Shown: positions 817-40,668 of the stretch, piece after piece
Layout of the letters: every line of letters starts with the position of its first letter
How positions within the stretch are numbered: the first letter of the stretch is position 1
Source: an uncultured Gammaproteobacteria bacterium
Lineage (GTDB): Bacteria; Patescibacteriota; Microgenomatia; UBA8517; JACQJR01
DNA: 55,663 nucleotides
Direction of reading: 5' to 3'
NCBI GenBank assembly: GCA_964363945.1
Contig: CAYIKF010000001.1
Coordinates: forward strand, 1-55,663
Position numbers and translations under genes: made by a program
The notes under the pieces: model-generated
What the model was told of the DNA's origin: nothing
The model's database searches: none
What the model saw: only the letters and a program-made list of their open reading frames with translations

Positions 817-1209
817 TTAAGGTCTATGATTTAAGTGTAGGCCTGATTTGAGGTATTTTATCAAACCACCCAACAAACTACCCACTTTATTGCATTGATT
901 AAAAAGAGTTTCATACTTTTCTTTTTCTAAATAACCTAAGTCCATTGACAAAAGGAGATGATATTTTGTTTCTTCTAAAGAGCCTTTTGCTAAAAACAAA
1001 AATTGTAGATATTCTCTTTTGTACGCTTTCGAATTTCCTTCGACTATATTAGTAGGAACAGAAGAGGCAGATCTACATATCTGATCTACAAGCCTGAATT
1101 TTTCTTCGCTTGGAAATTTTTTAGTTTCCTTATAGATAAAAAGCGTCAATTTATGAGCTTCTCGCCATACCTCCAACTCCTCAAATCTATTATTTAATTG
1201 TTTCCTCAT
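817..1209 (-). CDS. Four-helix-bundle protein (23S rRNA intervening-sequence / S23-type family, Avd-like fold)
   Basis: 130 aa. Segments EELEVWREAHKLTLFIYKETKKFP, QICRSASSVPTNIVEGNSK and AKGSLEETKYHL match my memory of the TIGR02436/PF05635 four-helix-bundle family. Confidence 0.85.
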   Translation of the reverse strand: MRKQLNNRFEELEVWREAHKLTLFIYKETKKFPSEEKFRLVDQICRSASSVPTNIVEGNSKAYKREYLQFLFLAKGSLEETKYHLLLSMDLGYLEKEKYETLFNQCNKVGSLLGGLIKYLKSGLHLNHRP

Positions 1210-1239: not shown

Positions 1240-2091
1240 CTATCCTACATTCACTCTAAGATTTAAATCTGGATCATATACCCATTTTCTCCTATTTTTA
1301 TCATCGTAGTAATGCAAAATTCTAAGTCTATAGAAGACCGCTAATGTATCCCACGCCATTCTAAAAATAGTCGACCAGCGAATTCTGCTTGTTCTTATAT
1401 CAAACGTTACTTCGATTGGAGCTTCATAAATTCTTTTAAACCCCAGATAGCGTGCAACAGAAAGCATCTCTATATCCATGGCGTAGCGTTTCACCAGTAA
1501 TCTTGGCAAGACTTTATCTAAAACTTTCCTTCTGAATATCTTTATCCCACTTTGTGTATCAGTTAGTGATAGACCAAAAAGTACCTTTACTCCTAGGTGG
1601 TATCCCAAACTTAAAATATGTCGAAGCAGAGGATAATTTACGCGGGATACAGGGTGTCTTTTTGAACCAACAATAACATCAGCATTGTACCATTCCATAT
1701 GGGCCATGAGCATCATGATACCGGCTGGCGAAATATCCATTCCTGCATCCAAAAAAGAAATGAGTTCCCCACGTGAGCGCGCCATACCATATCGGACAGC
1801 ATATCCCTTGCCCTTATTTTCTTCGTAACTAATTACCTTTATCTTTTTAGATTTTATTTTTGATGCTTCTTTAAACGTACCGTCAATCATGCCGTCAACA
1901 ACACATATAATCTCATAATCGTGATCTCTTAAGCCTTCTTTTAAAACCATTTCTATATTTGTTAAGTCTTTCTTTATGGTACGTTCTTGTCTATAAGCTG
2001 GAATAATAACAGATAATAATTTATTTTGGGTTCCAGCTTTCAAGCTCCGCTTATAAGCTGGAATAATAACAGAGAGTAATCTCTTTCTCAT
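1240..2091 (-). CDS. Glycosyltransferase family 2 (GT-A)
   Basis: 283 aa with SVIIPAY first strand, ICVVDGMIDGT and LDAGMD motifs. ATGA overlap (2088-2091) with the upstream gene. The N-terminus holds a duplicated LLSVIIPAY segment (repeat 1992-2073). An in-frame TTG at 2041-2043 could be the ancestral start. Confidence 0.85.
   Translation of the reverse strand: MRKRLLSVIIPAYKRSLKAGTQNKLLSVIIPAYRQERTIKKDLTNIEMVLKEGLRDHDYEIICVVDGMIDGTFKEASKIKSKKIKVISYEENKGKGYAVRYGMARSRGELISFLDAGMDISPAGIMMLMAHMEWYNADVIVGSKRHPVSRVNYPLLRHILSLGYHLGVKVLFGLSLTDTQSGIKIFRRKVLDKVLPRLLVKRYAMDIEMLSVARYLGFKRIYEAPIEVTFDIRTSRIRWSTIFRMAWDTLAVFYRLRILHYYDDKNRRKWVYDPDLNLRVNVG
1992..2073. repeat. In-frame 60-bp tandem duplication marked by the 22-bp direct repeat TATAAGCTGGAATAATAACAGA (1992-2013 and 2052-2073)
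   Basis: Both copies were read directly. They encode the duplicated LLSVIIPAY segment of the GT2 at 1240-2091. Confidence 0.85.
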
Positions 2092-3371
2092 TTTTTGTGA
2101 TTATGATATGGGAAGTATACAAGAAGCGATAAAAGCAGTAAAGCAGCGCACACAATAGAAATTTGAATAACCCGTAGCAAAGTCGGATGTATAAACCAAA
2201 TAAGTAGTATTTGCAAAAGTGCAGCAACTACAAAAAACCACACAACCCTCGTTTTATTAATAGACAAATAAAATTGAGTAAAAAGCATAGAAAGTACAAG
2301 GAGCGTCATAAAAATGCCAAACCACCAAAGCATAGGAGCGCCCATAAGATATCCCCTCCCATAAAGTACTCCAATAGGAATTTCAGGAAAAAGCCAATAA
2401 AACAACGCGACTCCAAGTGCAATCCCACTCACTAAGAAAATGCTTAAATAAAAGATTGTGTGATACGGTTGGCTGTGAGAAAACCGACGAGCAATTAGAG
2501 GAAACATTACGTGTATAACAGGGGACGCGCCAAAAAATGCGACCCTTCCGAGTACCGCCAACGAAGCGTATACACCCGCCTCCTCTGCAGAGAAAAAGTG
2601 TTTTACTAATAGAAGATCCGTAGAATACATCGAAGTTAATGCAAGTCCCTGTATAAATACGGGAATTGAATACTTAACAAGTGGACCAATATGGGGCATC
2701 ACTCCTCGCTTTCCACGTAAATATGAGTAAAGAGAAACACGTGTGACAAGAAGTGCACACACAAGTCCAACGAGCACCGCACCAATTGCCCCAACTACCG
2801 CAAAGCCCAAAAATATAAATACTACCGTTAAGAGAATTTTCACAGCTACCTCAACTAGAAGAGTGAATACATATTTATTGAACGAAAGTATTCCTTGAAG
2901 AATTGCCCTCTGGGCTGTGAGGACAAGGAAAAACAAAAGGATTGGTATCAATATATACATCGACGCGGGCTGTTGCATGTTTAAAAATGTAACAAGAAAC
3001 GGAGAAAGTATGAGTATAAAACCACCAGTAAAAACTCCAAGCCATATACTCCACCAGTTAATCCATTTTGCCAAATTCGCTACCGATGTATTGTTTTTCG
3101 CGGAAGCAATAAACTTCACAACAGTCAGAGATAACGATAATTGAATAATACCGATAATGCCTAAAATAGAAATGATCGTCGCGACATCTCCATAATATGC
3201 TTTTCCTAAAAATTCACCATATACTCTTTCAAGCGACCGTGCAGCTACAAAATGATACACAAATTGCCCAAAGTTAAAGAGGTTCGTCCCCACCACCATC
3301 ACAAAACTTCCGGCAAAAAGAGGATGTCTCAATATGGAATATGGAAAATGGAAGATGGAAAATCGCTTCAT
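2088..3371 (-). CDS. Polytopic membrane protein, probable MOP/Wzx-type oligosaccharide flippase
   Basis: 427 aa, almost entirely hydrophobic helices (about 12) with no soluble domain, embedded in a glycosyltransferase operon. Assignment rests on topology and context only. Confidence 0.55.
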   Translation of the reverse strand: MKRFSIFHFPYSILRHPLFAGSFVMVVGTNLFNFGQFVYHFVAARSLERVYGEFLGKAYYGDVATIISILGIIGIIQLSLSLTVVKFIASAKNNTSVANLAKWINWWSIWLGVFTGGFILILSPFLVTFLNMQQPASMYILIPILLFFLVLTAQRAILQGILSFNKYVFTLLVEVAVKILLTVVFIFLGFAVVGAIGAVLVGLVCALLVTRVSLYSYLRGKRGVMPHIGPLVKYSIPVFIQGLALTSMYSTDLLLVKHFFSAEEAGVYASLAVLGRVAFFGASPVIHVMFPLIARRFSHSQPYHTIFYLSIFLVSGIALGVALFYWLFPEIPIGVLYGRGYLMGAPMLWWFGIFMTLLVLSMLFTQFYLSINKTRVVWFFVVAALLQILLIWFIHPTLLRVIQISIVCAALLLLSLLVYFPYHNHKK

Positions 3372-4537
3372 TATGCTATCCAGTATCCTCTAACAAACAA
3401 AGAAGTTGCAATGCCCAAAAGGACAAAGAGCACAAAAGAAGTTGCAACCTTCACCCACAATGGACTCTTCTCAAGAAAAATTGCGGCAATTAAGAATGCA
3501 GGAAAGAGTGGAAGCATATATCGTGAAAGAGACGAGAAACTTCCAGATAATGTCGGGAGAACATATCCCCCAAGAAGCCATAATGCATAGGAAAGACGCA
3601 ACTTAAAGAATGAAAAGAACGCGGCAATAAGAAAAAGAATTGCTGTGGCGGATTCAAGCAAAAAGGTAAAAATGAAAGGATCTCGAATATTTATATCCAT
3701 TAGAATTTTAAAGTAGCGCCAGAATACTTGGGGGAGTAAAATTAGAGTACTTGAGCGTTGCTCGCCAAACCATGTAAGTGTATGAAAAAATGCAAAAGGG
3801 TCACCAGTTGTCTGGTAGAGATAGTACATATAAGCAAATAGTCCTAATGGAATTATAAAAAGAGAAATTAATTGAAAATTGAAAATTGAAAATTGAAAAT
3901 TTTTTCTTTGTGTCCACCACTCAACCAACAATACCGGTAATAACACTATCCCCAATACTCGTGTTGCGCTCGCAAATGCACCCAAAATTCCTGATGCCCA
4001 CCACCAACCACGCCGAGCCGCGTAAAATGACCAAACAACTAAAGCAAAAAACAAACTCTCTGTATAAACACTCCCAAAATAAAATGAGGTAGGAAAAACA
4101 AGGAACAATATAATAGTTAATTCTGTAATACTTTTTTTAAAATCTAATCGCAGTAATTTCCATAAACCTAAAAGAGCAAGAAAAAATGCAAAATAAGAAA
4201 TAAATAACCCTGCGGCTTGTAAAAAATATACATCTCCGCGAATTGGCCAGACCAGAAAACGCATTAAAAGTGGGTAAAGCGGGAAAAAAGCTTCCTCACC
4301 ATGCCCATATCCATGTTGGGCAATAGACAGATAATGTTCGCCATCAAAATTTCCCCATGCCCAAAAAAATGGCACTCTAAGATAGTGCTCAAGCCCTCCA
4401 CCTAAAAAATGAAGCCTAAGAGGAATAAAAACAACCGCTGCCAGTAAAAACACAAAGGTCCAAATTTTCCAAGCAAAAAAGAGGGAAATTAATAATGTAA
4501 CTAATGATTGATCTTTGTCTTTTTTCATACCATTCAC
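3371..4537 (-). CDS. Polytopic membrane glycosyltransferase, PIG-V/Gpi18-like (GT-C)
   Basis: 388 aa. GNFDGEHYLSIAQHGY...EEAFFPLYPLLMRF resembles bacterial PIG-V-type mannosyltransferase homologues. The same motif class occurs in 45305-46462 (YYAAHFPAFPLLIRAF). Contains an in-frame heptamer array (3871-3898). Confidence 0.5.
   Translation of the reverse strand: MNGMKKDKDQSLVTLLISLFFAWKIWTFVFLLAAVVFIPLRLHFLGGGLEHYLRVPFFWAWGNFDGEHYLSIAQHGYGHGEEAFFPLYPLLMRFLVWPIRGDVYFLQAAGLFISYFAFFLALLGLWKLLRLDFKKSITELTIILFLVFPTSFYFGSVYTESLFFALVVWSFYAARRGWWWASGILGAFASATRVLGIVLLPVLLVEWWTQRKNFQFSIFNFQLISLFIIPLGLFAYMYYLYQTTGDPFAFFHTLTWFGEQRSSTLILLPQVFWRYFKILMDINIRDPFIFTFLLESATAILFLIAAFFSFFKLRLSYALWLLGGYVLPTLSGSFSSLSRYMLPLFPAFLIAAIFLEKSPLWVKVATSFVLFVLLGIATSLFVRGYWIA
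3871..3898. repeat. Tandem heptamer array (ATTGAAA)x4, in frame in 3371-4537
   Basis: Four perfect units were read directly. The coding strand reads TTTCAAT units and gives the peptide NFQFSIFNFQ. Confidence 0.9.
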
Positions 4538-4543
4538 CTAGAA

Positions 4544-5590
4544 CTATTCACTAATCACTTTCCTATACGCTTCTATCGTTTGTGTAGCCGTTTTTCTCCA
4601 CGAAAATTCTTTTGCCCGCTCAAATCCTCTTTTAATTAATGACTTTCTAAGATTTAAGTTATTTATGACTGTTGTCAAACCATCCGCAATATTCCTTGGA
4701 TCTTTTGGATTAACAAACAAAGCTGAATTTTGCACAATTTCAACTATGCTTTGAGTTTTTGCAGCAACAACAGGGCAACCACACGCCATTGCTTCGAGTA
4801 CCGGTAATCCAAATCCTTCATAAAAAGAAGGTTGACAATACACTGTTGCAAGATTATAGAAATAAACCAAGTCTTCTGTTGGTACAAATCCAGGCATTAT
4901 AACTTTATCTTCAAGATTTACCCTTTTAATTAATTGAAATATCTCTTTTACCTCTGGTAGTTCTGTATTTTTGAAGGCATCACCAACAAGAACAAGTTTG
5001 ATGATTAACGATTGATGATTGACGATTGATGAGAAAGCTTTCAATATACCCGGGATATTCTTATTGTAATTCACGTCTCCCACATAAAGGGCAAACTTTT
5101 CTGGCAAGTTGTACTTTTTTCTAAAATCTAAAATCCAAGCTCTATCATCCAACTTTATAAATTCTTTCCCTGACGCAAGATGAACTACATGGATTTTATT
5201 AGCAGATATATCTAAAAATCTAAAAATATCTTTTTTAGAGGTTTCAGAATCAGTAATCACAGCCGCTACACCTTTTAAAGAAAATTTTTGAATTTGGTAC
5301 TTAATGAGTCCCCGAATTCCAGGAGAATACTGTTCTGGATAAATGAGCGGAATAACATCGTGAATAGTGACGACAGTGGGTTTAGGTTTTGAAAGTGGTA
5401 ATGTCAAAAAGAACAAATCAAAGTAAGGATAATGGACTACATCACAGTTTTTTATTTTATCTACTAATTCGATTTCCTTTTGTTCTTTTAAGGCGTCAAG
5501 TAAGTTTCTGGTATATGCACCAACTCCACGCACAGCATGTCCACTTTTTAGCGAAGTTGCATCTATAAACACTCTAATTCTCTTATTCAT
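4544..5590 (-). CDS. Glycosyltransferase family 4 (GT-B)
   Basis: 348 aa. The C-terminal half carries FYEGFGLPVLEAMACGCPVVAA, the E-x7-E nucleotide-sugar motif of GT4/group-1 enzymes. Confidence 0.9.
   Translation of the reverse strand: MNKRIRVFIDATSLKSGHAVRGVGAYTRNLLDALKEQKEIELVDKIKNCDVVHYPYFDLFFLTLPLSKPKPTVVTIHDVIPLIYPEQYSPGIRGLIKYQIQKFSLKGVAAVITDSETSKKDIFRFLDISANKIHVVHLASGKEFIKLDDRAWILDFRKKYNLPEKFALYVGDVNYNKNIPGILKAFSSIVNHQSLIIKLVLVGDAFKNTELPEVKEIFQLIKRVNLEDKVIMPGFVPTEDLVYFYNLATVYCQPSFYEGFGLPVLEAMACGCPVVAAKTQSIVEIVQNSALFVNPKDPRNIADGLTTVINNLNLRKSLIKRGFERAKEFSWRKTATQTIEAYRKVISE
5000..5033. repeat. Tandem 14-mer (2 x 7) array GATGATT-RACGATT, about 2.4 units, in frame in GT4 4544-5590
   Basis: gatgatt aacgatt gatgatt gacgatt gatgag was read directly. 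It encodes SSIVNHQSLII. Confidence 0.8.
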
Positions 5591-5621
5591 TTTGATTTTT
5601 GATATTTAATTTTTAATTTTT
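5590..5621. repeat. T-rich heptamer tract spanning the GT4 start codon, the intergenic gap and the GT2 3' end
   Basis: Bases 5590-5614 (ttttgatttttgatatttaattttt) are identical to 231-255. Confidence 0.8.
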
Positions 5622-6484
5622 CTAAGGTACCTCCAATATGCTCTCGGAAAACGGAGTGCTGAAAAGAACGAAAAGATCATTCCCTGCCACCCGTCTAAAA
5701 TTCCTTTGTGACGAATTTGAGTCAATAAAAACCACCAAAGGGGTTTGCTCACAAAATAATTAATAAACTGCAGTGGATTTTTGCCTACTTTATCGCGTTT
5801 TAACTCCGTAGCTAATAAGTCTATATATCGACTATTGCGTTCAAGATACCGTTTAAATGTCGGGTCTGCCATGTGAAGTAAATCGTGTTGTAACCATCCC
5901 ACTCGTCCCCGAACAACAATTTGCTCATGCACACTTTTTGCCGGAAAATATGCTTTTCCTTGTTTTACCAATCTTATCACACCATCAGGATACACACCGC
6001 CATGCCGCAAAAATTTACCAAGAAAAAAATTAAGTCGCGGGACAAAAAAACCTGCATATTCTCCGCCAGATGTACCAATTTTTCCATCGCGCTGTTCTAA
6101 TAATCTCTGATGGCGAATAAATAATTTCCTATTTGGTAATCGTTCTTGATACTCATCTATCTTTTCGTCGCTCATTTCGGTAATCTGTTCAATCTCTTTT
6201 GCAAGTTGTGGAGTCACCCGCTCATCTGCATCAAGTTGCAAAATCCAAACTCCGGTTGCCGCTTCAAGTGCTTTTTGTTTATTAATATGAAAAATCGGCG
6301 GATTAGTTGTTTTAATTATTCGAGACCCGTATTCCTTTGCAATCTCTCGTGTTCTATCGGATGATGACCCATCAACGATTACAATCTCGTCAGCAATCTC
6401 TTTTACAGACTCCAAACATGCTCCAATATTTTTCTCTTCATTAAAAGTTGCAAGAACGACAGACAGCTTATATTTTTTACTCAT
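5606..6484 (-). CDS. Glycosyltransferase family 2 (WaaE/KdtX-like subgroup)
   Basis: 292 aa with KLSVVLATFNEEKNI, IVDGSSSDRT, LQLDADE and a distal HGGVYPDGVIRL motif. Paralogous to 28518-29369 and 30327-31223. Confidence 0.85.
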   Translation of the reverse strand: MSKKYKLSVVLATFNEEKNIGACLESVKEIADEIVIVDGSSSDRTREIAKEYGSRIIKTTNPPIFHINKQKALEAATGVWILQLDADERVTPQLAKEIEQITEMSDEKIDEYQERLPNRKLFIRHQRLLEQRDGKIGTSGGEYAGFFVPRLNFFLGKFLRHGGVYPDGVIRLVKQGKAYFPAKSVHEQIVVRGRVGWLQHDLLHMADPTFKRYLERNSRYIDLLATELKRDKVGKNPLQFINYFVSKPLWWFLLTQIRHKGILDGWQGMIFSFFSALRFPRAYWRYLRKIKN

Positions 6485-6485
6485 A

Positions 6486-8159
6486 TTAATTTGCGACTAT
6501 TTGGAATGTTGCTTCCCCATTTGGGAAATAAATTTCATGAATAACGTTTGCGTCATCCGGAATTTCTTTATCGGTTCCTATAATCAATGACCCCCTTTTC
6601 TCTTCAATCGTTTTATCCCAATCCTTAACTTCTTCAAAATGAAATTTTTCAAAATCTCGAACAGTAGAGAATCCAAACTTATCACGCGAAGTTAAAGTAT
6701 GAGCACCCTGGAATTTTTCAGGAGGATACTGTAAATAGAATAAAAACAAAATGTATGGTTGGTCGTATCTGTCTGTTATTAAAAATTTAGGGTACTTGTC
6801 ATAGTTCTCTTTGACATAAGAGACTAATTCTTTCACCCCATATTGGGAAGAGGACGGATATTCTTTCGCCATATGTACATAATATTGATGAAGGTAACGG
6901 CTGAAATCCCACAGAATAATCCCAAAAATTACTATAATTCCTAAGGTGTAAATAGAATTCCACTTCGAAGGTGGAAACGAAGCTACACCTGTCCTTAACC
7001 ACCTAAGAAGTTTAACCAACCCATAAGCTGAAATTATTGTTAACGGAATTACCATATTGTGAGAACGCAACGCATGAGGAGATTGAAATGTAAGTGCCGC
7101 CGCAGTAGGTGCAATAATAAGCCACCACAGAACTATTCCCCATGATTGTGAGTTTCGGGCAATAGCTAATAAGCCAATTATAAGAAGCGGTAATTGGAAA
7201 AGGTACAATACTCCAACCTCTGGCACCTTATTACGCTCAATCTCGTCTCCAGACAAGAAAAGGAATTGCCCCCAAAAATGTTCGCCCCAATTCGCTAGAA
7301 ACTCAAGGGTATAGTTTACTACTTTATTATGAAGTACAAGAGCTACTACATCCTTATTGCTCCCATGTTCTCCTCGCTGTTCATTAATCCTCTCTATAAT
7401 TCCCTGGTCAGCAAAAATACTTACACCAGATGCCCGAGATACTCCCGCAGCTCCAGTAAGATCACGAATCAAAGGAATAAGAAGAATTACACCAACGATT
7501 ACTGGAACTAGAAGGCCATTCTTCTTTTCCCAAAAAAATCTTCGATAAAAGATTAAAAGTCCCATCACTAAAAGTGGCACCACTATCCTTGCAGCATGAT
7601 AAGTGTAAAGAGAAGCAACAAACGCAAGTGTTGAAATAACTAACCACTTGTTTTGTCGAGTTCCTTTAAGAAATGCCCATAATCCTAATACTATAAAAAA
7701 CGTTCCCGCATTAACTTCCCATCCACCGCGAGAGAAATGAATATGCCAAGGGCTCACCGCAAGAAGAGCAGCGGCGAGAATTTCCAATTTCCAATTTCCA
7801 ATTTCCAATTTCCGATCTTTAAAAAGTTCCTTAACTAAGAGATACACGAGCAGCACTGTTAACACCCCCAAAGTTGCTCCCGGTATCCTTACCGCCCACT
7901 CATTTAGTCCCAAAAACTTTACAAACGGTAAAACTATATAAAAGAATAACCCTGGCTTCCAATCTCCGAACGACTCAAAATGTATAGGCCATGCGTGTCC
8001 ATGTTCATCTTTTCCAGTTTGAATAAGGGAATATGCGTTATACACCACTGCTGCCTCATCGGCGTTCAAGGCAGGTAAAGTATTTAATTGATTAAAACGC
8101 AAGAAAGAAGCCAACAAAATTATTAATACTAGTAATAGTTTGTTATACTTGCTAATCAT
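6486..8159 (-). CDS. GT39/PMT-family (ArnT-like) lipid-carrier-dependent membrane glycosyltransferase, paralog 1
   Basis: 557 aa. The first-loop motif NADEAAVVYNAYSLIQTGKDEHG carries the DE dyad typical of PMT/ArnT GT-C enzymes. SPWHIHFSRGGWE is present, with about 11 TM helices. The soluble C-terminal domain ends in FPNGEATFQIV. Carries an in-frame GGAAATT array. Confidence 0.8.
   Translation of the reverse strand: MISKYNKLLLVLIILLASFLRFNQLNTLPALNADEAAVVYNAYSLIQTGKDEHGHAWPIHFESFGDWKPGLFFYIVLPFVKFLGLNEWAVRIPGATLGVLTVLLVYLLVKELFKDRKLEIGNWKLEILAAALLAVSPWHIHFSRGGWEVNAGTFFIVLGLWAFLKGTRQNKWLVISTLAFVASLYTYHAARIVVPLLVMGLLIFYRRFFWEKKNGLLVPVIVGVILLIPLIRDLTGAAGVSRASGVSIFADQGIIERINEQRGEHGSNKDVVALVLHNKVVNYTLEFLANWGEHFWGQFLFLSGDEIERNKVPEVGVLYLFQLPLLIIGLLAIARNSQSWGIVLWWLIIAPTAAALTFQSPHALRSHNMVIPLTIISAYGLVKLLRWLRTGVASFPPSKWNSIYTLGIIVIFGIILWDFSRYLHQYYVHMAKEYPSSSQYGVKELVSYVKENYDKYPKFLITDRYDQPYILFLFYLQYPPEKFQGAHTLTSRDKFGFSTVRDFEKFHFEEVKDWDKTIEEKRGSLIIGTDKEIPDDANVIHEIYFPNGEATFQIVAN
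7781..7815. repeat. Tandem heptamer array: (TTTCCAA)x4 plus one imperfect unit on the plus strand, GGAAATT on the coding strand
   Basis: Read directly. It encodes KLEIGNWKLEI in GT39 paralog 1. Confidence 0.95.
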
Positions 8160-8177
8160 ATATTCATATATGAATAT
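8160..8177. repeat. 18-bp perfect palindrome ATATTCATATATGAATAT that fills the whole intercistronic gap
   Basis: Read directly. It is bounded by the TAA stop of 8178-9881 and the ATG of 6486-8159. Confidence 0.85.
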
Positions 8178-9881
8178 TTAGAGCACTTCTACTAATCGGA
8201 AGGCCGTCTGGCCATTGGGATATTTAATCTCATCAACAAGTTTAAATTGATCTGGATTATTTGAATCTTCAATTGGAATCTGCTCTATAGTCCCCACAAA
8301 CAAAACTCCCTTTCTCCCTCTATCCCTATGCCAATCAAGAAACTCGAATGAAATATTGTCTAATTGAGGAACAAGCCATGCATCAAGTTTACCCGCCGGC
8401 CCCTCAACAAGTTTGACATTCTTTTGATATAAAGATGGATTATATTTTTGGTAAAAGAGAAAATAGATATATGGTTGATCGTAGCTTTGTGTGATTACAA
8501 TTTTTTCATAACTTTTTTGAAGTGGAGTTATTTTTTCAACAATCTGTTTATATCCATACTGCCAGCTCTTAGCATTGTGAGCATTCATATGAACAAAGTA
8601 TTGATCAATAAAATACAAGAAATTAAGAGAATAGAGAACAGAGAATAGAAAAACAGCAAATTTACTCCATTTCAAACTTCTAACCCAATGCCATAAAAAT
8701 AATGCCCCAGCACCAAGAACAATCGTTAGTGGAATAACAAGGTTAAGTGAACGGATTGCGTGAAGTGTATCTCTAGAAAGAGCTGCAGGAAGTGGCGCCA
8801 CAAGCAACCAATATCCAATAAACAAAATAGCAGGACTTATTTTCATACGAGCTAAAAATATAGTTCCTGCAACGAGAAAAACGATATCAATAAACAACAA
8901 TACACCAGCCCTGGGAACACTAAGGTTAAGATGTACCCAATCTCCTTCAAAAAAGAGAAAACGAGGAGAATAATGATTCATCCATCGCCCTAAAATCCCT
9001 CGTTTAAAATGGAGTATTTCATTGTGGAAAAGAATGTAGGTAAGACTTTCTTTTGTCTCATTTCCCTGCCCAAGAATATGACTTACTATTTCTTCTGGAC
9101 GTGGTCCGGAAAAAACACTGAAAACTTCAAGCCTCCCTGTTTTCTCTGTGCCTATTGATAGCAGGACAGGCAATGAAACAAGAATGAACGCTACGACTGA
9201 CCCAACTAGAATCTTCTTTGAAACAGTAAAAAGTTTTCTTGACCAAAAAACTACAAGTCCTAAAATTACAAGCCCTGTTGCAAGTTTTGCACCCTGATAG
9301 GTTATTAATGTTGTCCCAAAGAAAAGGGCTGAAAAAAGAAGCCAATTTGGCCTATCGCGTATAGCTCGTAGAAAAAAATAAATACCAATAAGGGTTAAGG
9401 TCAACGACATCCCTGCTTCCCAAGCGCCTCTTGAAAAATGAATATGCCAAGGAGAGATGGCTAGCAAGAAGCTTGCTAGAATTTTCAATTTATAATTTTC
9501 AATTTTCAATTGATTTTTTTCTCTGAACAACTCACCAACAACTAAATAAATTAACCACACCGCAATAATCCCAGAAATTGCGCCTGGTAGACGGGCCGCA
9601 AATTCGTTAAGCCCAAAAACGGCAACCGAAGGAACAGCTGCATAAACATAAAGTCCTGGTTTCCAATCGGAAAATGATTTAAAAATAATCGGCAAGAATT
9701 CTCCATGCTCATCTCGCCCTGTTTTCAAGATAGAATACGCGTTATATCCCAACGCCGCCTCATCGTTTGTCAAATGTGGCGGAATACTCCCCAAGCTCCA
9801 CAATCTCAAAACCGCAGCTAAAATTAAAATAACTAAAAGCCATTTATTACCTAAAATTTTTGCTTTAATGAATTGATTCAT
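8178..9881 (-). CDS. GT39/PMT-family membrane glycosyltransferase, paralog 2
   Basis: 567 aa with TNDEAALGYNAYSILKTGRDEHG and SPWHIHFSRGAWE. The C-terminal domain contains YDQPYIYFLFYQKY and ends in YPNGQTAFRLV. Carries an in-frame TGAAAAT-type array. Confidence 0.8.
   Translation of the reverse strand: MNQFIKAKILGNKWLLVILILAAVLRLWSLGSIPPHLTNDEAALGYNAYSILKTGRDEHGEFLPIIFKSFSDWKPGLYVYAAVPSVAVFGLNEFAARLPGAISGIIAVWLIYLVVGELFREKNQLKIENYKLKILASFLLAISPWHIHFSRGAWEAGMSLTLTLIGIYFFLRAIRDRPNWLLFSALFFGTTLITYQGAKLATGLVILGLVVFWSRKLFTVSKKILVGSVVAFILVSLPVLLSIGTEKTGRLEVFSVFSGPRPEEIVSHILGQGNETKESLTYILFHNEILHFKRGILGRWMNHYSPRFLFFEGDWVHLNLSVPRAGVLLFIDIVFLVAGTIFLARMKISPAILFIGYWLLVAPLPAALSRDTLHAIRSLNLVIPLTIVLGAGALFLWHWVRSLKWSKFAVFLFSVLYSLNFLYFIDQYFVHMNAHNAKSWQYGYKQIVEKITPLQKSYEKIVITQSYDQPYIYFLFYQKYNPSLYQKNVKLVEGPAGKLDAWLVPQLDNISFEFLDWHRDRGRKGVLFVGTIEQIPIEDSNNPDQFKLVDEIKYPNGQTAFRLVEVL
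9480..9512. repeat. Heptamer cassette of TGAAAAT type (coding strand CAATTGAAAATTGAAAATTATAAATTGAAAATT)
   Basis: Encodes QLKIENYKLKI in GT39 paralog 2. It is 30 of 33 nt identical to the trmD cassette at 50235-50268, in the same reading frame. Confidence 0.9.
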
Positions 9882-9888
9882 TGAATCA
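9874..9888. repeat. 15-bp palindrome TGATTCATTGAATCA that overlaps the start codon of 8178-9881
   Basis: Read directly (7+1+7). The ATG at 9879-9881 lies inside it. Confidence 0.75.
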
Positions 9889-9889
9889 T

Positions 9890-11575
9890 TTAAATAGTTT
9901 TCTCCAAAATATCAAACGCTGGTTTGTTGTCTAGAAAGTTTATTGTTTGTAACAATCTCCAGCCAGATGGATAGTTACCCGGACTCGTAATAAGAAGTGT
10001 TTTACCACTTAAAGGAACAATTCCGCCACTTTCCATCCGCCAGCTGGCGGAGCCATCACGCGGGATTTCCCAATCATTTACAAAATAAAACTTATCAAAT
10101 CTGTCCACCCAGTACCAATTTGATTGTGCAAAACGGATTAAATTTGGGTCCTGCCTATACTTTTCCGGATCCCATGGCCAGTAAAACAATAAAAACTCAT
10201 GCGGTTCGCCATATTTTTTGGTCATAATAATTTGGTTATATCCATTGTAATGCCCTTTTATAAATTGTACTGCTTCCTTGTACCCATACTGCCACGACCA
10301 TGAGTAATTAGTTCTATATGGTCCCACATACTCCCTCGCATAGTTTTCCATAAAATACAAAAGAAGAACAACATATATTATGCTAAACAATAATTTTAAA
10401 TTCTGTTGTTTAAACCATGCCCAGAAGGTAGCTAAACCTAACGCAACAAATATTTGTGGAAGCGGAACTATAGTTGTAGCACGAATAACATGAAACTCAC
10501 CTTGAGTAATACTGGCTGGAATAAGACCTAAAATTAGCCAAAAGAACAAAAAAGTTTTTTCCGATCTCTTCTTCTTAAACACTGCTAAAGCAACCAACGT
10601 TAAACCTACATAAAAAAATGGCGCGTTTATTGGATAAAGTATTCCTTTATCTGGAACGCTGAATTGATAATTAGATCCTCCCGAAGTAAACAAAAATCTA
10701 GGAGAAAAATAACCAATAAAATTTTTTCCAAACTCAGAGATAAAAAAGCTGTATCTATTGTATAGTAAGCGATCGATTGGCTCGGGAAGATTAGACTTTT
10801 CGCGCATTTCTATAATTCTCGCTATACTTCCCTCATCAAGCAAGAAAACCCATTTAGATCTGGCCCTTCCTTCCTGACTTGTAAAAACAAAATATAGCGG
10901 AACAAGAAAGGCAATTAATATTAAGAGTGAGGAAATAAAAACTTTATTTTGTTTAAATATCGAGGCTTTAAATTCTTTAAACCAAACAATACCAACCACT
11001 AGCAATAGTAATGGTACAAATATTCTCGTATTGTGATAAGAATACAGAGAAAGGCCCACGGAGATTGCTGAGGTAGGTAGAAAAAGAAAATGTTTTTTTC
11101 TATATAGAAAAAGGGCAACTCCCGTTATTAAGAAAAATGAAGCTACATTTGATTGAAATACAGCACGCGAGGGGAAAAACATCCATGGATCAATTGCAAC
11201 AAAAAGTGCAGCAAGAAGCGCTACTGTTTTCCCAAATTTGAGTCCATAAACTAAAAAGTAAGTAGATAAGATAATTGCTGTACCTAATATAGCGTGTGGA
11301 AATCTAATGCCAAATTCGTTAAGTCCAAATAATGCAATACTTGGAATAGTTAAATAAAGATTGACGGGCAAAGGATAATCTCCATAGGCGCGAAAATTTG
11401 TAAGTGGTAAAAACTCTCCCCATTCATCCTTGCCTGTTCTCAGGATAGAATAAGCGTTATAACCATGTGACACTTCATCCCAGTTAAGACTTGGTGGAAG
11501 TTGTCCAAGCCCAATAAAGCGAATTAGTAAACCAACCGCCAAGATAATAATTATTGCTATCCTATCTCTACCCAT
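9890..11575 (-). CDS. GT39/PMT-family membrane glycosyltransferase, paralog 3
   Basis: 561 aa with NWDEVSHGYNAYSILRTGKDEWG and a C-terminal YGEPHEFLLFYWPWDPEKY. 8-nt overlap with the upstream gene. Contains the TCCGCCAGCTGGCGGA palindrome (peptide SASWR). Confidence 0.8.
   Translation of the reverse strand: MGRDRIAIIIILAVGLLIRFIGLGQLPPSLNWDEVSHGYNAYSILRTGKDEWGEFLPLTNFRAYGDYPLPVNLYLTIPSIALFGLNEFGIRFPHAILGTAIILSTYFLVYGLKFGKTVALLAALFVAIDPWMFFPSRAVFQSNVASFFLITGVALFLYRKKHFLFLPTSAISVGLSLYSYHNTRIFVPLLLLVVGIVWFKEFKASIFKQNKVFISSLLILIAFLVPLYFVFTSQEGRARSKWVFLLDEGSIARIIEMREKSNLPEPIDRLLYNRYSFFISEFGKNFIGYFSPRFLFTSGGSNYQFSVPDKGILYPINAPFFYVGLTLVALAVFKKKRSEKTFLFFWLILGLIPASITQGEFHVIRATTIVPLPQIFVALGLATFWAWFKQQNLKLLFSIIYVVLLLYFMENYAREYVGPYRTNYSWSWQYGYKEAVQFIKGHYNGYNQIIMTKKYGEPHEFLLFYWPWDPEKYRQDPNLIRFAQSNWYWVDRFDKFYFVNDWEIPRDGSASWRMESGGIVPLSGKTLLITSPGNYPSGWRLLQTINFLDNKPAFDILEKTI
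10036..10051. repeat. 16-bp perfect palindrome TCCGCCAGCTGGCGGA in a short GC-rich patch (copy 1 of 3)
   Basis: Read directly. It is translated as SASWR in GT39 paralog 3. Confidence 0.9.
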
Positions 11576-13247
11576 AGCGTTTATCCGCCTTCAAAAGTAA
11601 TATCGTAGCAGTCAATAAAGATAACAATGAAACAATATTACCTATTGTTCTAACAGGAGTATTGGTAAAGGAGAGAGTCAATGTATGCATACCGCCAGAA
11701 ACCTTGGTTGTAATAAGCCCATAAATACCACTGGGGTAAATATCTATTTCTTGATTATCAATATAAGACTTCCAACCCGGAAAAAAAACTATGGGAAATT
11801 GTACTTTTACGTCGTCAGATTGAACCGTAATATCATAAGCTGCTTTATTGCTTGTTTTCTCAACCAAACTTCCACTTGCCTTTCCTTCCAAAATTATTGG
11901 GTCTTTTGGCGCTGGTTCTGTTGGAAGCTCTTTTGCAAAAACTGGCCAATAATCAGGTAATGAGGCAGCAATTTGTTCTTCCCAACGGTTTCCAGAAAAT
12001 TGTTCCAAATCACCAACTTTATGCCAAATATCCTCTTTGAAAAAAGAGAAGTTAAGAGTGACAGCCAAGACAATAAGAACGCTAATAAAAATTCCGTTAT
12101 TCTTTTTAATTAAAAATGCAACACCACCTGAAGCAAGCGAAAAGGCAAAAGTAGAAATAGCAAGCCAGCGCCAAGGGAATTGCAGGTAAGAAAGAAAGGG
12201 AATATTTTCCCAAATAAATGTTGATTTATTATGTGTTAAAAAGAGGGCTAACCAACCAATACCGACTAAAACTAATAATTCTTTCCATTTAATCGAAGAC
12301 AAGCTCTGCTTATCTTGTTTTTTGAATAAAAACCATAAAAGCGTAACAAGAGGAAAAATCCATTGGACTTGACCAACAGAAAGACTCAAATCATCTTTTG
12401 GCCCGAATAAAGACGCTCCATAGCCCCAAAAGCGAGAGATTAATAGTTGATTAACTGTTGTAAAATGGGCGCGAAAATCAAAATATCCGCTGGTTACTAA
12501 ATTCAAATCGATAAACTTTGATTCAAAAATAATTGGCAGTAGATAAAATGCCGAGAGGAAAACAGAAAGAATGGATGCACCAAAAATAGGCAATACCAAT
12601 CTCCATTTTTTATTCGTAAAGATGAGAAATCCTATCCAAATAATCAAAAATGGTAAAAACATTAAAAATGATAAATTGTGAGTAACGAGTAACAAAGCAA
12701 GTGAAAAACTTAATAAACAAGTTTGTTTCTGACGAAATAAAAGGATATCCCTTAAATTTTTATGTGAGAAAATATTATTAATCAAAAGGATAATAACAGG
12801 AAATATTACAAAAGCCATTGCCTCCGGTAGCGCCCCCCTTACCCAAATGTCAAGTGCCCGGTAGGGTGCATATGTATAAACAACAGCTGACAGGATTGCA
12901 GAAAGATTGTTCCCCCAAATTTGCCTGGCAAGAAAAAACATTGAAACAGCAGATCCTACCAAAGTTAGAATAAATAAAATTTTGATTGAATCAATAAATT
13001 GAAAACCGAGAAAATGGAATATTTCTCCCATTGCGTATGGTATTTGTGTATAAAAATTGAAAACCGGCTCACCATACCCAAATCCAGCATCAGGAGCCCA
13101 TCGACAGGGGATTTGTAAATCTTTTACGCATTTGTCAAATTCATACAATCTGAAAATATGGAAATCCTGCATTGAAAAAATACCAGGCCGCAGCATTCTA
13201 AAAAAAGTTGGAATTGTGAGCAATAAAACCAGGAATATTATCTTCAT
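11568..13247 (-). CDS. Polytopic membrane protein, YfhO/PTPS-related-type (putative GT-C glycosyltransferase)
   Basis: 559 aa. The N-terminus MQDFHIFRLYEFDKCVKDLQIPCRWAPDAGFGYGEPVFNFY resembles PF10131-type (PTPS_related) membrane proteins as I remember them. The C-terminal module FFPGWKSYIDNQE...GGMHTLTL plus a final TM helix matches that of the YfhO gene at 25077-27506. Paralog of 37307-39025. Confidence 0.55.
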   Translation of the reverse strand: MKIIFLVLLLTIPTFFRMLRPGIFSMQDFHIFRLYEFDKCVKDLQIPCRWAPDAGFGYGEPVFNFYTQIPYAMGEIFHFLGFQFIDSIKILFILTLVGSAVSMFFLARQIWGNNLSAILSAVVYTYAPYRALDIWVRGALPEAMAFVIFPVIILLINNIFSHKNLRDILLFRQKQTCLLSFSLALLLVTHNLSFLMFLPFLIIWIGFLIFTNKKWRLVLPIFGASILSVFLSAFYLLPIIFESKFIDLNLVTSGYFDFRAHFTTVNQLLISRFWGYGASLFGPKDDLSLSVGQVQWIFPLVTLLWFLFKKQDKQSLSSIKWKELLVLVGIGWLALFLTHNKSTFIWENIPFLSYLQFPWRWLAISTFAFSLASGGVAFLIKKNNGIFISVLIVLAVTLNFSFFKEDIWHKVGDLEQFSGNRWEEQIAASLPDYWPVFAKELPTEPAPKDPIILEGKASGSLVEKTSNKAAYDITVQSDDVKVQFPIVFFPGWKSYIDNQEIDIYPSGIYGLITTKVSGGMHTLTLSFTNTPVRTIGNIVSLLSLLTATILLLKADKRYG

Positions 13248-14944
13248 TCTGATATTGGATTAACAATTAACATCGCCTTTTTACTGTCAGGAAATAAAAT
13301 TGTTTCGAGAGGCTCGATAGTTTCAGGAAAATCACGAGCTCTTCCAACTAAAAGCGTGTTTTCTAGTGCTCCGTCATCAAAATAACGAATATCTCGGAAG
13401 GTGTACTTGCCCAACTTATACTCACCTAGTTGATCGACAAATAATAAGCCCTGTTTTTCGTAACGGAGAAAGTGTTGTGCTTGTTTTTGATAATCAGAAG
13501 GGTCCCATTTTTTGTGAAAGGCAACAAAGATATGTGGTTCTGAGAAGGCTCGGGAAATAATAATCTCGTTGTAATTTTCCTCCACACTTTGGATATACTC
13601 CACAGCTTGTCTCCACCCATAAGACATTGAATGTGCATTATTCCGGGGAGCATGATAGAAATAAGCCTCAAGGAAAAATAAAAAGCCCATTATCCCAATT
13701 ACCCAATAACCTAACAATCCAATCTGTTTGAGGTTCGAGTTGAGATGTTTGATATTCTTTACCATTTGCCATAACGCCATACCACCATACGCCGACAAAA
13801 TCTGTATTGCTGGCATCATGACTGCCGCCCGGTTTGCCGCAAACCCCGGTCCTTTTGTCAATGCCGCAGGAATTGGCGAGAGAATAATCCACGCTAAAAT
13901 AAAACCAATATCCCACTTCGGCCTCTTAACAAAAACCCAAAGAGCAACACCAATAAATGGCAACTCAAACAAATAAAGCACTCCAAATCCCGGAATCATA
14001 CCATACGTTGCTTCCCCTGCGCCTTGAGTAAAAAGAAAGGTAGGAGATAGGTAAGTTAGATAGTTTTTAGTGAATTCGCTCGCTACATAAGTTAATTTAT
14101 TAGAAAAGAGTCGCGAAATTGCATCTGGCAACCCAGCTTGTAACCCCTCGTATCTTCTGTCAGCAACCACGCCCCATCCTCCTGTCGGATTAAAAATTGC
14201 TACATCTGATGCTCTATTCCCCCCACCGCTAAGGACTGACACCATACTGACTGCTAAAAACAAACCAAATACAATTAAAAACACGTACTTCGCTTTAATG
14301 AATTGATACATTGAAATAGAACCTTTCGTTAATTTTTTATGACCCAACCAGATAAGAGCCAAAACAACAAGTGGAGTAACCAAGCGGGCCGAATGATAAG
14401 AAAACAGATTAATCCCAAATGCAAAAGCTGAAACTATCATCCATCGTCCATCCTTTAATCCCTTCAAAAATGCATAAACTCCCAAAGGCATTAAAAATGT
14501 GGTTAGATTTGCTTCAAATGCACCGCGAGAAAGAGAAATATGCCAAGGACTCACGGCAAGCAATGTTGCCGCGAGAATTTCCAATTTCCAATTTCCAATT
14601 TCCAATTTTTTGAATAATTCCTTAACTAGAAGATACGTTGCTAATACTGCTAACACCCCTAAGATTGCATTTGGCAACCTGACGGCAAACTCATTAAGCC
14701 CAAAAACGGCAACCGAAGGAATCGCAAGATATGTATAAAGTGGTGCTTTAAAATCACCGAATGAACGAAATGTTAAAGGGAACGATTCTCCCCACTGATC
14801 TTTTCCTGTCTTTAAAATAGAATACGCATCATACCCAAACGACGCTTCATCAGGAGTGAATCCGGCAGGATACTTATCAAGCCACAAAATACGCAATACT
14901 GCAGCCACAAGAAGAATTAAAATCAGCAATAAACGTGGTTTCAC
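13244..14944 (-). CDS. GT39/PMT-family membrane glycosyltransferase, paralog 4
   Basis: 566 aa with TPDEASFGYDAYSILKTGKDQWG, SPWHISLSRGAFE and a C-terminal FSEPHIFVAFHKKWDPSDY. The start codon is GTG (14942-14944). ATGA-type overlap downstream. Carries an in-frame GGAAATT array. Confidence 0.8.
   Translation of the reverse strand: MKPRLLLILILLVAAVLRILWLDKYPAGFTPDEASFGYDAYSILKTGKDQWGESFPLTFRSFGDFKAPLYTYLAIPSVAVFGLNEFAVRLPNAILGVLAVLATYLLVKELFKKLEIGNWKLEILAATLLAVSPWHISLSRGAFEANLTTFLMPLGVYAFLKGLKDGRWMIVSAFAFGINLFSYHSARLVTPLVVLALIWLGHKKLTKGSISMYQFIKAKYVFLIVFGLFLAVSMVSVLSGGGNRASDVAIFNPTGGWGVVADRRYEGLQAGLPDAISRLFSNKLTYVASEFTKNYLTYLSPTFLFTQGAGEATYGMIPGFGVLYLFELPFIGVALWVFVKRPKWDIGFILAWIILSPIPAALTKGPGFAANRAAVMMPAIQILSAYGGMALWQMVKNIKHLNSNLKQIGLLGYWVIGIMGFLFFLEAYFYHAPRNNAHSMSYGWRQAVEYIQSVEENYNEIIISRAFSEPHIFVAFHKKWDPSDYQKQAQHFLRYEKQGLLFVDQLGEYKLGKYTFRDIRYFDDGALENTLLVGRARDFPETIEPLETILFPDSKKAMLIVNPISE
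14578..14605. repeat. Tandem heptamer array (TTTCCAA)x4 on the plus strand, GGAAATT on the coding strand
   Basis: Read directly. It encodes KLEIGNWKLEI in GT39 paralog 4, at the same loop position as 7781-7815. Confidence 0.95.
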
Positions 14945-14961
14945 TACCTAAATTGTAGCAT

Positions 14962-19654: not shown

Positions 19655-19706
19655 ACCTTTTCCATTGTATACATTAATATGTTAAAGTTTATCAGGGATT
19701 ATTAAA

Positions 19707-35806: not shown

Positions 35807-35821
35807 CCTTAAATTGTAACA

Positions 35822-37303: not shown

Positions 37304-37306
37304 GGC

Positions 37307-40656: not shown

Positions 40657-40668
40657 CCTTCAATTATA

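Follow-up and report, generated by a model that had tools for sequence, protein, structure and literature searches.

Heptanucleotide arrays in the window

The DNA described here is a 55,663-nucleotide (nt) stretch, contig CAYIKF010000001.1 from an uncultured bacterium, which is called the window throughout. It holds a large cluster of glycosyltransferase (GT) genes together with other genes, among them trmD, and short tandem arrays of 7-nt units such as GGAAATT are embedded in many of them. The window is about 97% coding and has a GC content of 37-41%. Its TrmD groups with Candidatus Microgenomates, which belongs to the Candidate Phyla Radiation (CPR, or Patescibacteria), and the DNA comes from a Hainich groundwater population.

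In an exact-periodicity scan of the window, seven arrays repeat their unit perfectly three times or more, and the period of every one is 7 nt. The same scan of the window finds no primitive unit of any other period between 5 and 24 nt in three or more perfect copies. About 12 imperfect arrays with a period of 7 or 14 nt are added by Tandem Repeats Finder (TRF; Table 1). The sequence GGAAATTGGAAATT, with at most one mismatch, occurs 17 times in the window, compared with 0.08 occurrences expected from shuffles. Several heptamer units are found in this one genome, including GGAAATT, GAAAATT, CAAAAAT, TAACATC and others. The five GGAAATT arrays are situated in four genes, namely two GT39/PMT_2 paralogues, one GT2 gene carrying two arrays, and one GT2+PMT_2 fusion.

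An earlier note on this DNA, made from the letters alone, had described GGAAATT arrays inside four glycosyltransferase genes in both orientations, related 7- and 14-nt arrays elsewhere, and arrays in trmD. These observations are correct. The perfect GGAAATT/AATTTCC arrays lie within 1-3 nt of the coordinates given there, the translations LEIGNWKLEI and NFQFPISNFQFPI are right, the host frames are preserved, TRF recovers the imperfect arrays at the places listed, and trmD contains two arrays.

The host open reading frames (ORFs) stay open through the arrays, and all arrays of the window except one are inside ORFs. The stretch at 1-816 that looks non-coding belongs to a GT4 ORF truncated where the contig ends, so that array 224-267 is in frame too. 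This array matches array 5590-5621 at 31 of 32 nt and shares an irregular unit with it (TTTTGATTTTTGATATTTAATTTTT.ATTTTT), although the two have unrelated flanks. Array 5590-5621 supplies the final codons and the stop of GT2 gene 5606-6484, as well as the spacer before the start codon of GT4 gene 4544-5590. The pair suggests copying between loci. No second pair of arrays sharing private mutations was found.

Length, reading frame and stop codons

The arrays were compared with three sets of related DNA. An exact match to three GGAAATT units (a 21-mer) in Joint Genome Institute (JGI) metagenomes gave at least 120 loci. The window and about 200 related loci, including the matches listed from metagenomes, hold 190 perfect arrays. 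The second set consists of 80 trmD loci from GTDB genomes, of which 54 are from CPR or ambiguously labelled and 26 are non-CPR, and the third consists of 76 aligned GT39 homologues at 55-70% identity. The taxon labels of many of the metagenome-assembled genomes are unreliable.

The period of 7 nt dominates outside the window as well. TRF finds 53 arrays of period 7 in the 80 trmD loci and at most 10 of any other period. In ORFs picked without regard to any pattern, the most frequent unit is GGAAATT. Among the matches listed, the perfect metagenomic GGAAATT arrays have a length peak at 30-34 nt, which is 4.3-4.9 units (28 nt, 2 arrays; 29 nt, 2; 30 nt, 30; 31 nt, 15; 32 nt, 11; 33 nt, 10; 34 nt, 4; more than 34 nt, few). 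The array ends at ...GGAAATT| in 58 of the 79 oriented arrays among these matches, and the dominant form is TT(GGAAATT)4, 30 nt long. Arrays in other phases of GGAAATT are likewise 30 nt in total. The 30-nt form fits a length of 9+7k nt with k=3, and it fits a 30-nt cassette equally well. Arrays of 30-34 nt account for 101 of the 142 perfect arrays that are spanned by an ORF of at least 450 nt and for 18 of the 48 outside such ORFs (p=6e-5), the latter being "non-coding" by this crude definition.

None of the seven perfect arrays of the window has a unit with a stop codon in any coding-strand frame. Most of the imperfect arrays are ones in which perfect repetition would create an in-frame stop, and those at 9480, 22708, 33720, 38486, 50236 and 50536 deviate precisely at such positions (Table 1). 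Of the 192 classes of heptamer with two G/C, 35 are stop-free in all six frames, and GGAAATT is one of them. The coding strand reads AATTTCC in 58 and GGAAATT in 31 of 89 metagenomic arrays among the matches listed (p=0.006), an excess that could reflect peptide tolerance or a replication-strand bias.

Close relatives differ in length by three units. The gene with array 43947 has an orthologue at 87% identity in L003, a syntenic locus; at the array the window is longer by exactly 21 nt (three units, seven amino acids), and L003 keeps AATGGAAAATT. In TrmD, a difference of exactly seven amino acids within the array separates P0007 from P0008 and P0009. A uniform insertion size was considered and rejected, since a clean difference of +7 amino acids is seen in the closest pairs only. 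At the 43470 site the 14-nt array of the window corresponds in L003 to a perfect TTTGTAA array, an unrelated unit, and the length is nearly unchanged relative to array-less orthologues. Array 30136-30169 recurs at the identical site in a 39%-identical homologue (L168), and array 30217-30249 changes the net length by about 0 to +2 amino acids relative to homologues.

Hairpins at the array boundary

The two sides of the GGAAATT arrays are not equivalent. A perfect stem of at least 7 base pairs (bp) begins within 2 nt of the right boundary in 14 of the 79 arrays (18%) among the matches listed. The corresponding frequency is 0.6% at random positions (p about 1e-16) and 1.3% at the left flank. Folding energies of -7 kcal/mol or lower are found for 21.5% of the right flanks, 2.8% of the random positions and 1.3% of the left flanks. 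The sequence of the hairpin varies between loci. For arrays inside ORFs, the association with an abutting hairpin is seen in one coding orientation (9 of 44) as well as in the other (4 of 25) among the matches listed, and the asymmetry is therefore one of the DNA.

The hairpins of the window are given in Table 1. That at 14550-14575 differs from that at 7754-7777 by one compensatory pair change (C-G to G-C). The hairpin at 30250-30274 has a folding energy of -11.6 kcal/mol (z -5.6), and 0 of 200 shuffles were as good. The hairpin found at 43511-43528 also abuts the differing array of L003. The hairpins of seven array-bearing GT39 genes have energies of -5.3 to -13.3 kcal/mol, compared with -3.9 to -4.3 kcal/mol in four array-less ones (p=0.005). 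Their stems differ in sequence between genes and are mutually compensated. Programmed -1 frameshifting at a heptamer with a downstream hairpin was considered and rejected, as GGAAATT is not an X XXY YYZ slippery site and the hairpin lies on one fixed side of the DNA, whichever strand codes.

Recurrent sites in GT39, TrmD and leucyl-tRNA synthetase

Three GT39 paralogues of the window, only 36-38% identical to each other, share the same array site. In the AlphaFold model of the protein encoded by 6486-8159 (predicted local distance difference test, pLDDT, 89; predicted template modelling score, pTM, 0.91) the array residues, about 113-124, link helix 87-112 to helix 125-134 as a short loop or beta-hairpin. 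Approximately half of the 76 homologues have a short form of this loop, KDE-LALVAAFFLAISPWHI, without an array. The remaining homologues carry LEIGNWKLEI (GGAAATT), FSIFNFQFSI (AATTTTC), ISHQSLA or VTNHQSL types, or decayed or interrupted versions of these. The final unit and its flank, GAA ATT CTC GC, encode E I L A and match the native E-I-L-A of array-less homologues. To judge from this match, the array may be a reiteration of the local 7 nt at the base of the hairpin.

Arrays 7779 and 14576 show no differences over 11 codons, while 5 of 12 flanking codons for the same residue differ synonymously. The arrays are thus homogenised or constrained at the DNA level. Constraint would be expected if the repeats, with or without the hairpin, were a functional cis-element, a protein-binding platform kept perfect by selection, for example for a nucleoid, replication or uptake factor or for a CsrA-like GGA binder. 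The recurrence of GGAAATT across lineages and the resemblance of four units plus a hairpin to iteron-plus-hairpin origins agree with such a role. Nevertheless it is improbable, because many different units occur in one genome, many orthologues show free decay of the arrays and about half of the GT39 homologues lack them, an Rfam scan of the window finds no family match, and coding loops of unrelated genes, in both orientations, offer no obvious regulatory logic.

Two fixed sites of trmD carry arrays in 15 of the 54 loci that are from CPR or labelled ambiguously, and in none of the 26 non-CPR loci (p=0.001). Alignment to solved TrmD structures places site 1 (50236-50268) in a loop, with about one residue more than in S. 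aureus TrmD. Site 2 (50536-50574) is in the interdomain linker, where the window has a 12-residue insertion relative to S. aureus TrmD and seven more residues than the closest array-poor orthologues, P0008 and P0009. The units of the TrmD arrays vary by lineage and some are related to each other, for instance as CYAAnnn. In several orthologues the site 2 array has the same position and length and its units share CYAA, while the last three bases vary between arrays and are homogeneous within each. Such a pattern is one of concerted evolution. Other TrmD orthologues carry GGAAATT at site 2.

Some arrays are split by G+C-rich palindromic stretches of 21-30 nt, as at TrmD site 2 (L003:10500-10600), in the proteins P0006 and P0010, and in the GT39 homologues P0172, P0180, P0163, P0209 and P0221. 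The AATCACC array of the L003 TrmD, for example, is interrupted by CCGCCGAAGGCGAGGCTCGCCAAGGGCGG, encoding PAEGEARQGRQ. There seems to be a mutual attraction between heptamer arrays and small inserts that form hairpins.

Shared array sites are also found in ORFs resembling leucyl-tRNA synthetase (LeuRS; about 50% identity). Those in L094, L099, L137 and L189 carry a FPISNFQFPI (AATTTCC) array at one site, GRSEGAxxxFPISNFQFPIxVFTTRPD. A second LeuRS site has GGAAATT in L115 and an AAAGCTC array in L123. Beside the array of L115, a hairpin arm resembles an inverted copy of the native codons upstream.

About a quarter of the metagenomic GGAAATT arrays among the matches listed (for example L201, L195, L179 and L095) have degenerate GRATTT-type arrays on their 5' side, with units such as GAATTTT, GGATTTT and GAGATTT, and with ..GRATTTRT directly before TTGGAAATT. 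Some of these are then followed by TTGTATC arrays. The compound heptamer islands are probably intergenic.

Phase variation and assembly

The earlier note had proposed that the arrays are contingency switches, in which slipped-strand changes of unit number turn individual glycosyltransferases ON or OFF and so vary the surface glycan. The unit length of 7 is not a multiple of 3, so that a gain or loss of one unit is a frameshift. Moreover, several arrays are in the first 20% of glycosyltransferase genes, and heptanucleotide phase variation is known elsewhere (NeuO, PMC13001214; HMW1A with 7-bp repeats, PMC8262952). Unit number does change on an evolutionary timescale. In orthologues and paralogues, however, the tract stays in frame, and where unit number differs it does so by exactly three units.

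The observations, made at the level of consensus sequences, where low-frequency slippage would not show, do not support such switching. Assemblies L001, L002 and L083, from replicate samples of the same groundwater population, cover 29022-55663 with 99.8-99.98% identity to the window. Within this region single-nucleotide polymorphisms are present, and no indel relative to the window is found at any array in the three consensus sequences. The split ORF expected of an OFF allele is seen at none of the 190 perfect arrays, and 76 of 76 GT39 homologues are full length. Exact array-bearing proteins are recorded on 2-4 contigs each, and a cluster look-up finds no length variants of them. One candidate variant, P0130, was rejected because its difference is in the start site.

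Perfect tracts are 4.3-5 units long, and 4-5 units are maintained across GT39 homologues of 55-70% identity. Characterised phase-variation switches generally have far longer tracts.

An enrichment in surface-glycosylation genes is also not found. Seventeen of the 19 arrays lie in the glycosylation part of the window, which makes up 81% of its length (p=0.28); the array density in the remaining part is equal, and two arrays are in trmD. The hosts of GGAAATT in the metagenomes are mostly housekeeping proteins. Pfam assignments of 87 ORFs among the matches listed include class I aminoacyl-tRNA synthetases (7), TsaD (6), TrmD (4), GT1 (4) and GT2 (3), and further hosts among these matches are EF-type GTPases, SecDF, UvrC, UvrD and RecG. 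The contingency-switch explanation is therefore very improbable. For annotation this means that population data are needed before a glycosyltransferase gene of an uncultured bacterium is called phase-variable on account of an intragenic repeat with a non-triplet unit.

Simple repeats can be mis-built in short-read metagenome assemblies. There is, nevertheless, only a vanishingly small chance that the arrays are an assembly or sequencing artefact, since identical arrays are present in four independent assemblies and arrays occur in hundreds of contigs from unrelated projects and assemblers. In addition, the ORFs are intact and the array-coded peptides align at matching sites in orthologues.

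Origin of the arrays

On the best explanation, heptanucleotide arrays form a population that extends across the Microgenomates/Patescibacteria lineage, and the GGAAATT arrays stand out most among them. They would be products, at the DNA level, of a process reiterating 7 nt and not regulatory switches belonging to particular genes. The anatomy of the arrays, the filters of frame, stop and loop, the hot spots, the three-unit steps, the association with hairpins and the lack of gene specificity are observed; slippage as the generator, a causal role of the hairpin and the reason for the 7-nt unit are inferred. The reading that we favour, with a probability of roughly 0.55, is that slippage reiterates 7 nt at sites set by hairpins and that its products are then filtered for reading frame, stop codons and tolerance by loops.

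A 7-nt unit beside an obstacle to replication or repair would be copied repeatedly through slippage. For GGAAATT arrays the obstacle would typically be a DNA hairpin beginning at the 3' boundary of the array. The product would be 9+7k nt long, consisting of a seed with 2-nt microhomology and k units. Because the genome is about 97% coding, only events compatible with frame, stops and loops would be retained, that is, those in which three units (21 nt, seven residues) are added or removed, no in-frame stop arises, and the loop tolerates about 7-10 extra residues. The outcome would be the dominant 30-nt form TT(GGAAATT)4. Thereafter the arrays would persist for long periods at hot spots, contract or expand by three units, be homogenised or replaced by other units, and decay. 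Occasionally they would be copied between loci.

Several observations weigh against this reading. One-step slippage cannot take a tract of about 1.3 units up by three units, and as intermediates with one or two extra units would be lethal in the essential trmD, a processive multi-slip event must be assumed. The net length relative to the closest array-less homologue ranges from -5 to +26 amino acids, and several cases are close to 0, as if the array had overwritten native sequence. GGAAATT recurs in unrelated genes, in distant lineages and in both orientations at one site, which is not predicted by in-situ copying of local sequence. The dispersed imperfect pair 224-267 and 5590-5621 points to copying between loci. 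Arrays with units other than GGAAATT have no significant association with hairpins (an abutting stem in 3 of 52, with the same result for minimum free energy). The direction of the three-unit differences is ambiguous: at the 43947 site GGAAATT units also form an array in the Woesebacteria orthologue L010 (56% identity), and this outgroup suggests a contraction in L003. The choice of an exact 21-mer skews the metagenomic set toward perfect arrays. A preference for four units is also found in intergenic arrays of Xanthomonas and Nostoc (PMC4692102), and frame selection is thus perhaps not the sole cause of the 30-nt form. Slippage would leave the 7-nt period, the wide recurrence of GGAAATT, the length-neutral replacements and the three-unit step in essential genes unexplained.

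A serious rival is that TT(GGAAATT)4, possibly together with the proximal hairpin arm, would be a selfish or "written" element deposited at DNA hairpins. The agent could be a structure-directed nuclease or transposase, or a reverse transcriptase primed at a cruciform, on the model of the retrohoming of diversity-generating retroelements (DGRs), and selection would keep only in-frame, stop-free copies in loops. The unit, the 30-nt length and the right boundary are constant across unrelated genes and lineages; the hairpin is on one side, its structure being conserved and its sequence not; several arrays replace native sequence with a net change of about 0; and opposite orientations occupy one site in different orthologues. 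The near-identical dispersed copies of an imperfect array (31 of 32 nt) fit as well, and a unit that is stop-free in all six frames is what a successful intragenic parasite would be expected to have. Precedents are the in-frame palindromic elements of Rickettsia (RPEs; PMC10969869) and DGR homing at a hairpin or cruciform with a variable stem (PMC3240598). A 23S_rRNA_IVP/bAvd-like gene is present at 817-1209.

A written element is nonetheless unlikely. There is no target-site duplication, flanking direct repeats being at chance level for k=2-6, and no terminal inverted repeats, transposase or reverse transcriptase are found in the window. The exact 21-nt difference and the residual unit at the "empty" site of L003, the many other units, which are contrary to a single template, and the correspondence of the last GT39 unit and flank to native E-I-L-A, which in-situ reiteration predicts, all speak against it. 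So does the count of only 11 exact matches in 2.9 million viral contigs, which also gives no sign of a phage origin, a possibility that was rejected.

The second proposal of the earlier note, a family of small insertion cassettes tolerated in loops, comes close to the observations in view of the loop and linker sites, the occurrence in essential genes and the one dispersed imperfect pair. The notion of an inserted cassette agrees less well with in-situ expansion or contraction by three units, the lack of target-site duplications and the differing units at shared loop sites.

The gene at 817-1209 (minus strand) encodes a 23S_rRNA_IVP four-helix-bundle protein (126 bits) with a sub-threshold match to the bAvd-like family, a DGR accessory family. 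A DGR target beside it was considered and rejected, as there is no pair or single copy resembling a template and variable repeat near this gene, no reverse transcriptase in the window, and the adjoining region 1-815 is the GT4 ORF cut by the contig end.

It is conceivable, at rather low odds, that the 30-nt patch beside a variable hairpin is the footprint of an unrecognised structure-directed DNA-writing or ultra-small mobile-element activity in CPR, one that would recognise DNA hairpins or cruciforms and either deposit such a patch or overwrite sequence with it. If so, a writing activity, by reverse transcription or reiterative synthesis, would continually remodel the surface loops of proteins, essential ones included, and the "four-unit" heptamer arrays of cyanobacteria, Xanthomonas and Beggiatoa, themselves unexplained, might arise in this way too.

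Relation to known repeats

Heptanucleotide repeats are over-represented in some prokaryotes according to Mrazek et al. (2007), as cited in PMC4679880 and PMC4692102. Examples given there include the cyanobacterial short tandemly repeated repetitive (STRR) heptamers and the GGGNATC/GGGGAYT arrays of Xanthomonas and Nostoc; the mechanism is described there as unknown, and slippage of a polymerase with a 7-nt footprint is proposed. The arrays of the window resemble these simple sequence repeats in that tandem 7-nt units are favoured over other periods, with several families per genome and on both strands. The approximately four-unit preference of the Xanthomonas and Nostoc heptamers (PMC4692102) likewise corresponds to the peak at 30-34 nt found here. 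However, those repeats are mainly intergenic and under-represented in ORFs, whereas the present ones are nearly all in frame in genes, including essential genes. The units here are A+T-rich and cannot form a G-quadruplex, so that such structures do not explain the preference for four units in this case. In the papers examined, neither hairpins adjoining one side of the arrays nor recurrent hot spots in loops were found.

The TAACTGA repeats of marine Beggiatoaceae, cyanobacteria and some Bacteroidetes (PMC4679880) are also a single heptamer in 2-6 repeats in distant lineages, where related heptamers are seldom repeated and the mechanism is unexplained. TAACTGA contains stops, is intergenic, lies upstream of start codons and has been proposed to act in translational regulation, in contrast to GGAAATT, which is stop-free in six frames and inside ORFs. 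The Rickettsia RPEs (PMC10969869) are similarly repeated DNA in frame in unrelated and essential genes of a reduced genome, where the fold permits, and are associated with hairpin-forming sequence. They differ in being palindromic, of about 100-150 bp, similar to miniature inverted-repeat transposable elements, and conserved in sequence and peptide; the arrays here are 30-nt tandem heptamers in which only the unit is conserved, with no terminal inverted repeats or target-site duplications and with unit slippage.

The contingency loci of Haemophilus, Neisseria and Campylobacter (NeuO, PMC13001214; HMW1A, PMC8262952) share a non-triplet intragenic unit and, in some cases, glycosyltransferase hosts. 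They are unlike the present arrays, which have no length polymorphism at the consensus level, no OFF alleles, no restriction to surface genes, 4-5 units, and essential hosts. The repeats of Borgs (PMC9879509) also evolve fast, arise independently in ORFs and add loop or disordered residues under a frame constraint. Their units are long and multiples of 3, while here the unit is 7 nt and only the whole array or a three-unit step keeps the frame. In DGR targets (PMC3240598) a coding patch is likewise rewritten at constant length beside a hairpin or cruciform whose stem structure, not sequence, matters. DGRs, however, write a mutagenised copy of a cognate template repeat, altered at adenines, into a variable repeat of about 100 nt. 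The product here is a heptamer array, no such repeat pair or reverse transcriptase was found, and the likeness is no more than an analogy.

The excess of heptamer repeats and the four-unit preference are already known. We found no prior description of in-frame loop hot spots in essential genes, of a fixed TT(GGAAATT)4 or of a one-sided hairpin junction, and no paper in the literature searched combines heptanucleotide repeats with Patescibacteria or CPR. The arrays are a pervasive source of loop insertions of 7-10 residues and of hypervariable loop sequence in conserved CPR proteins, and as such affect protein alignments, orthology calls and phylogenies. They probably alter the surface properties of the membrane glycosyltransferases of this cluster. 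The 30-nt form, the three-unit steps and the one-sided hairpin junction make the bacterial heptamer excess testable, and they are not explicable by G-quadruplexes, the account offered for other four-unit arrays.

Table 1. Positions of the heptanucleotide arrays and abutting hairpins in the window (TRF, imperfect array found with Tandem Repeats Finder)
Feature	Position	Strand	Host or neighbouring array	Remarks
Imperfect TCAAAAA-type array (TRF)	224-267	-	GT4-like ORF leaving the window at left	In frame; encodes IKKSKIKYQKSKIK
Imperfect 7/14-nt array (TRF)	3331-3363	-	Polysacc_synt_3 gene 2088-3371	At N-terminus
Perfect array, AATTGAA by scan, AATTTTC on coding strand	3870-3901	-	PIG-V-like mannosyltransferase gene 3371-4537	
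Array of 14-nt period (TRF)	4998-5032	-	GT4 gene 4544-5590	
Imperfect array, dispersed copy of 224-267 (TRF)	5590-5621	-	End of GT2 gene 5606-6484, start of GT4 gene 4544-5590	
Perfect (GGAAATT)x5	7779-7813	-	GT39/PMT_2 gene 6486-8159	Encodes RKLEIGNWKLEI
Short imperfect array (TRF)	8626-8649	-	GT39 gene 8178-9881	
Degenerate GAAAATT array (TRF)	9480-9511	-	Third GT39 paralogue 8178-9881	GT39 loop site; encodes QLKIENYKLKI; would-be TGA replaced by TAT
Perfect (GGAAATT)x4.7	14576-14608	-	Paralogous GT39 gene 13244-14944	Loop site as in 6486-8159
Imperfect array (TRF)	22708-22741	-	GT2 gene 22004-22882	Departs from perfect unit at would-be in-frame TAA
Perfect array, AATTTCC on coding strand	30136-30169	-	GT2 gene 29366-30325	Encodes NFQFPISNFQF
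Second perfect array, AATTTCC on coding strand	30217-30249	-	GT2 gene 29366-30325	Encodes EFPISNFQFPI
Degenerate array (TRF)	33720-33752	-	Gene 32596-34341	In-frame TAG of perfect unit removed
Degenerate array (TRF)	38486-38520	-	YfhO/PTPS-related membrane gene 37307-39025	Several would-be stops removed
Perfect ATTTTTG array, CAAAAAT on coding strand	39418-39447	-	GT39 gene 39022-40656	Encodes IKNQKSKIKN
Array of 14-nt period, CAGGTTTCAGGTGC x3 (TRF)	43470-43510	-	GT2+PMT_2 fusion gene 43052-45277	
Perfect (GGAAATT)x4.3	43947-43976	-	GT2+PMT_2 fusion gene 43052-45277	
GAAAATT array (TRF)	50236-50268	+	trmD 50019-50735	Site 1; encodes 11 residues; would-be TGA replaced by TTA
TAACATC array (TRF)	50536-50574	+	trmD 50019-50735, interdomain linker	Site 2; encodes 13 residues; would-be TAA, TAA replaced by AAA, CAA
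Hairpin CTCGCCGC..GCGGTGAG	7754-7777	-	3' of array 7779 (GGAAATT orientation)	Codons LAAALLAVS; -6.7 kcal/mol, z -1.6
Hairpin CTAGCAAG-ctt-CTTGCTAG	9462-9478	-	Abuts array 9480	z -2.4
Hairpin CTCGCGGCAA..TTGCCGTGAG	14550-14575	-	Abuts array 14576	-8.7 kcal/mol, z -3.0
Perfect 10-bp hairpin CTCGCATGCT-cttta-AGCATGCGAG	30250-30274	+	Abuts array 30217-30249	Codons LACLKSMRE
Hairpin TTGGGCA-atca-TGCCCAA	43511-43528	+	Abuts 14-nt array 43470	Codons LGMIAQ; -8.9 kcal/mol, z -3.7

Neighbouring DNA and taxon labels

A cyanobacterial origin of the window was considered and rejected, the HIP1 motif (GCGATCGC) being absent. The 90%-identity clusters of the proteins of this contig hold P0122, P0124 and P0132, and some members are deposited as "Nanoarchaeota archaeon". 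Several Microgenomates-like TrmD loci (L003, L005, L009, L049, L057 and others) are titled "uncultured Gammaproteobacteria", "Actinomycetota" or "Bathyarchaeia". These conflicting public labels are likely binning or labelling errors.

The window and the independent assembly L001 break at the same base, 55663, while L002 continues through. Past the break, L002:6098-9771 encodes a CAP-domain protein and a TraG/VirD4-like (DUF87/TrwB) ATPase. The region may be a strain-variable or mobile stretch that fragments assemblies.

The regions 6486-21212 and 32596-43052 form an unusually long tandem run of paralogous membrane glycosyltransferases of the GT-C type, with about 12 PMT_2/GT39-like, YfhO-like and PTPS-related genes of 500-800 amino acids each. 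GT2, GT4, flippase-like and methyltransferase genes lie among them, and nearly all are on one strand, with overlapping stop and start codons.

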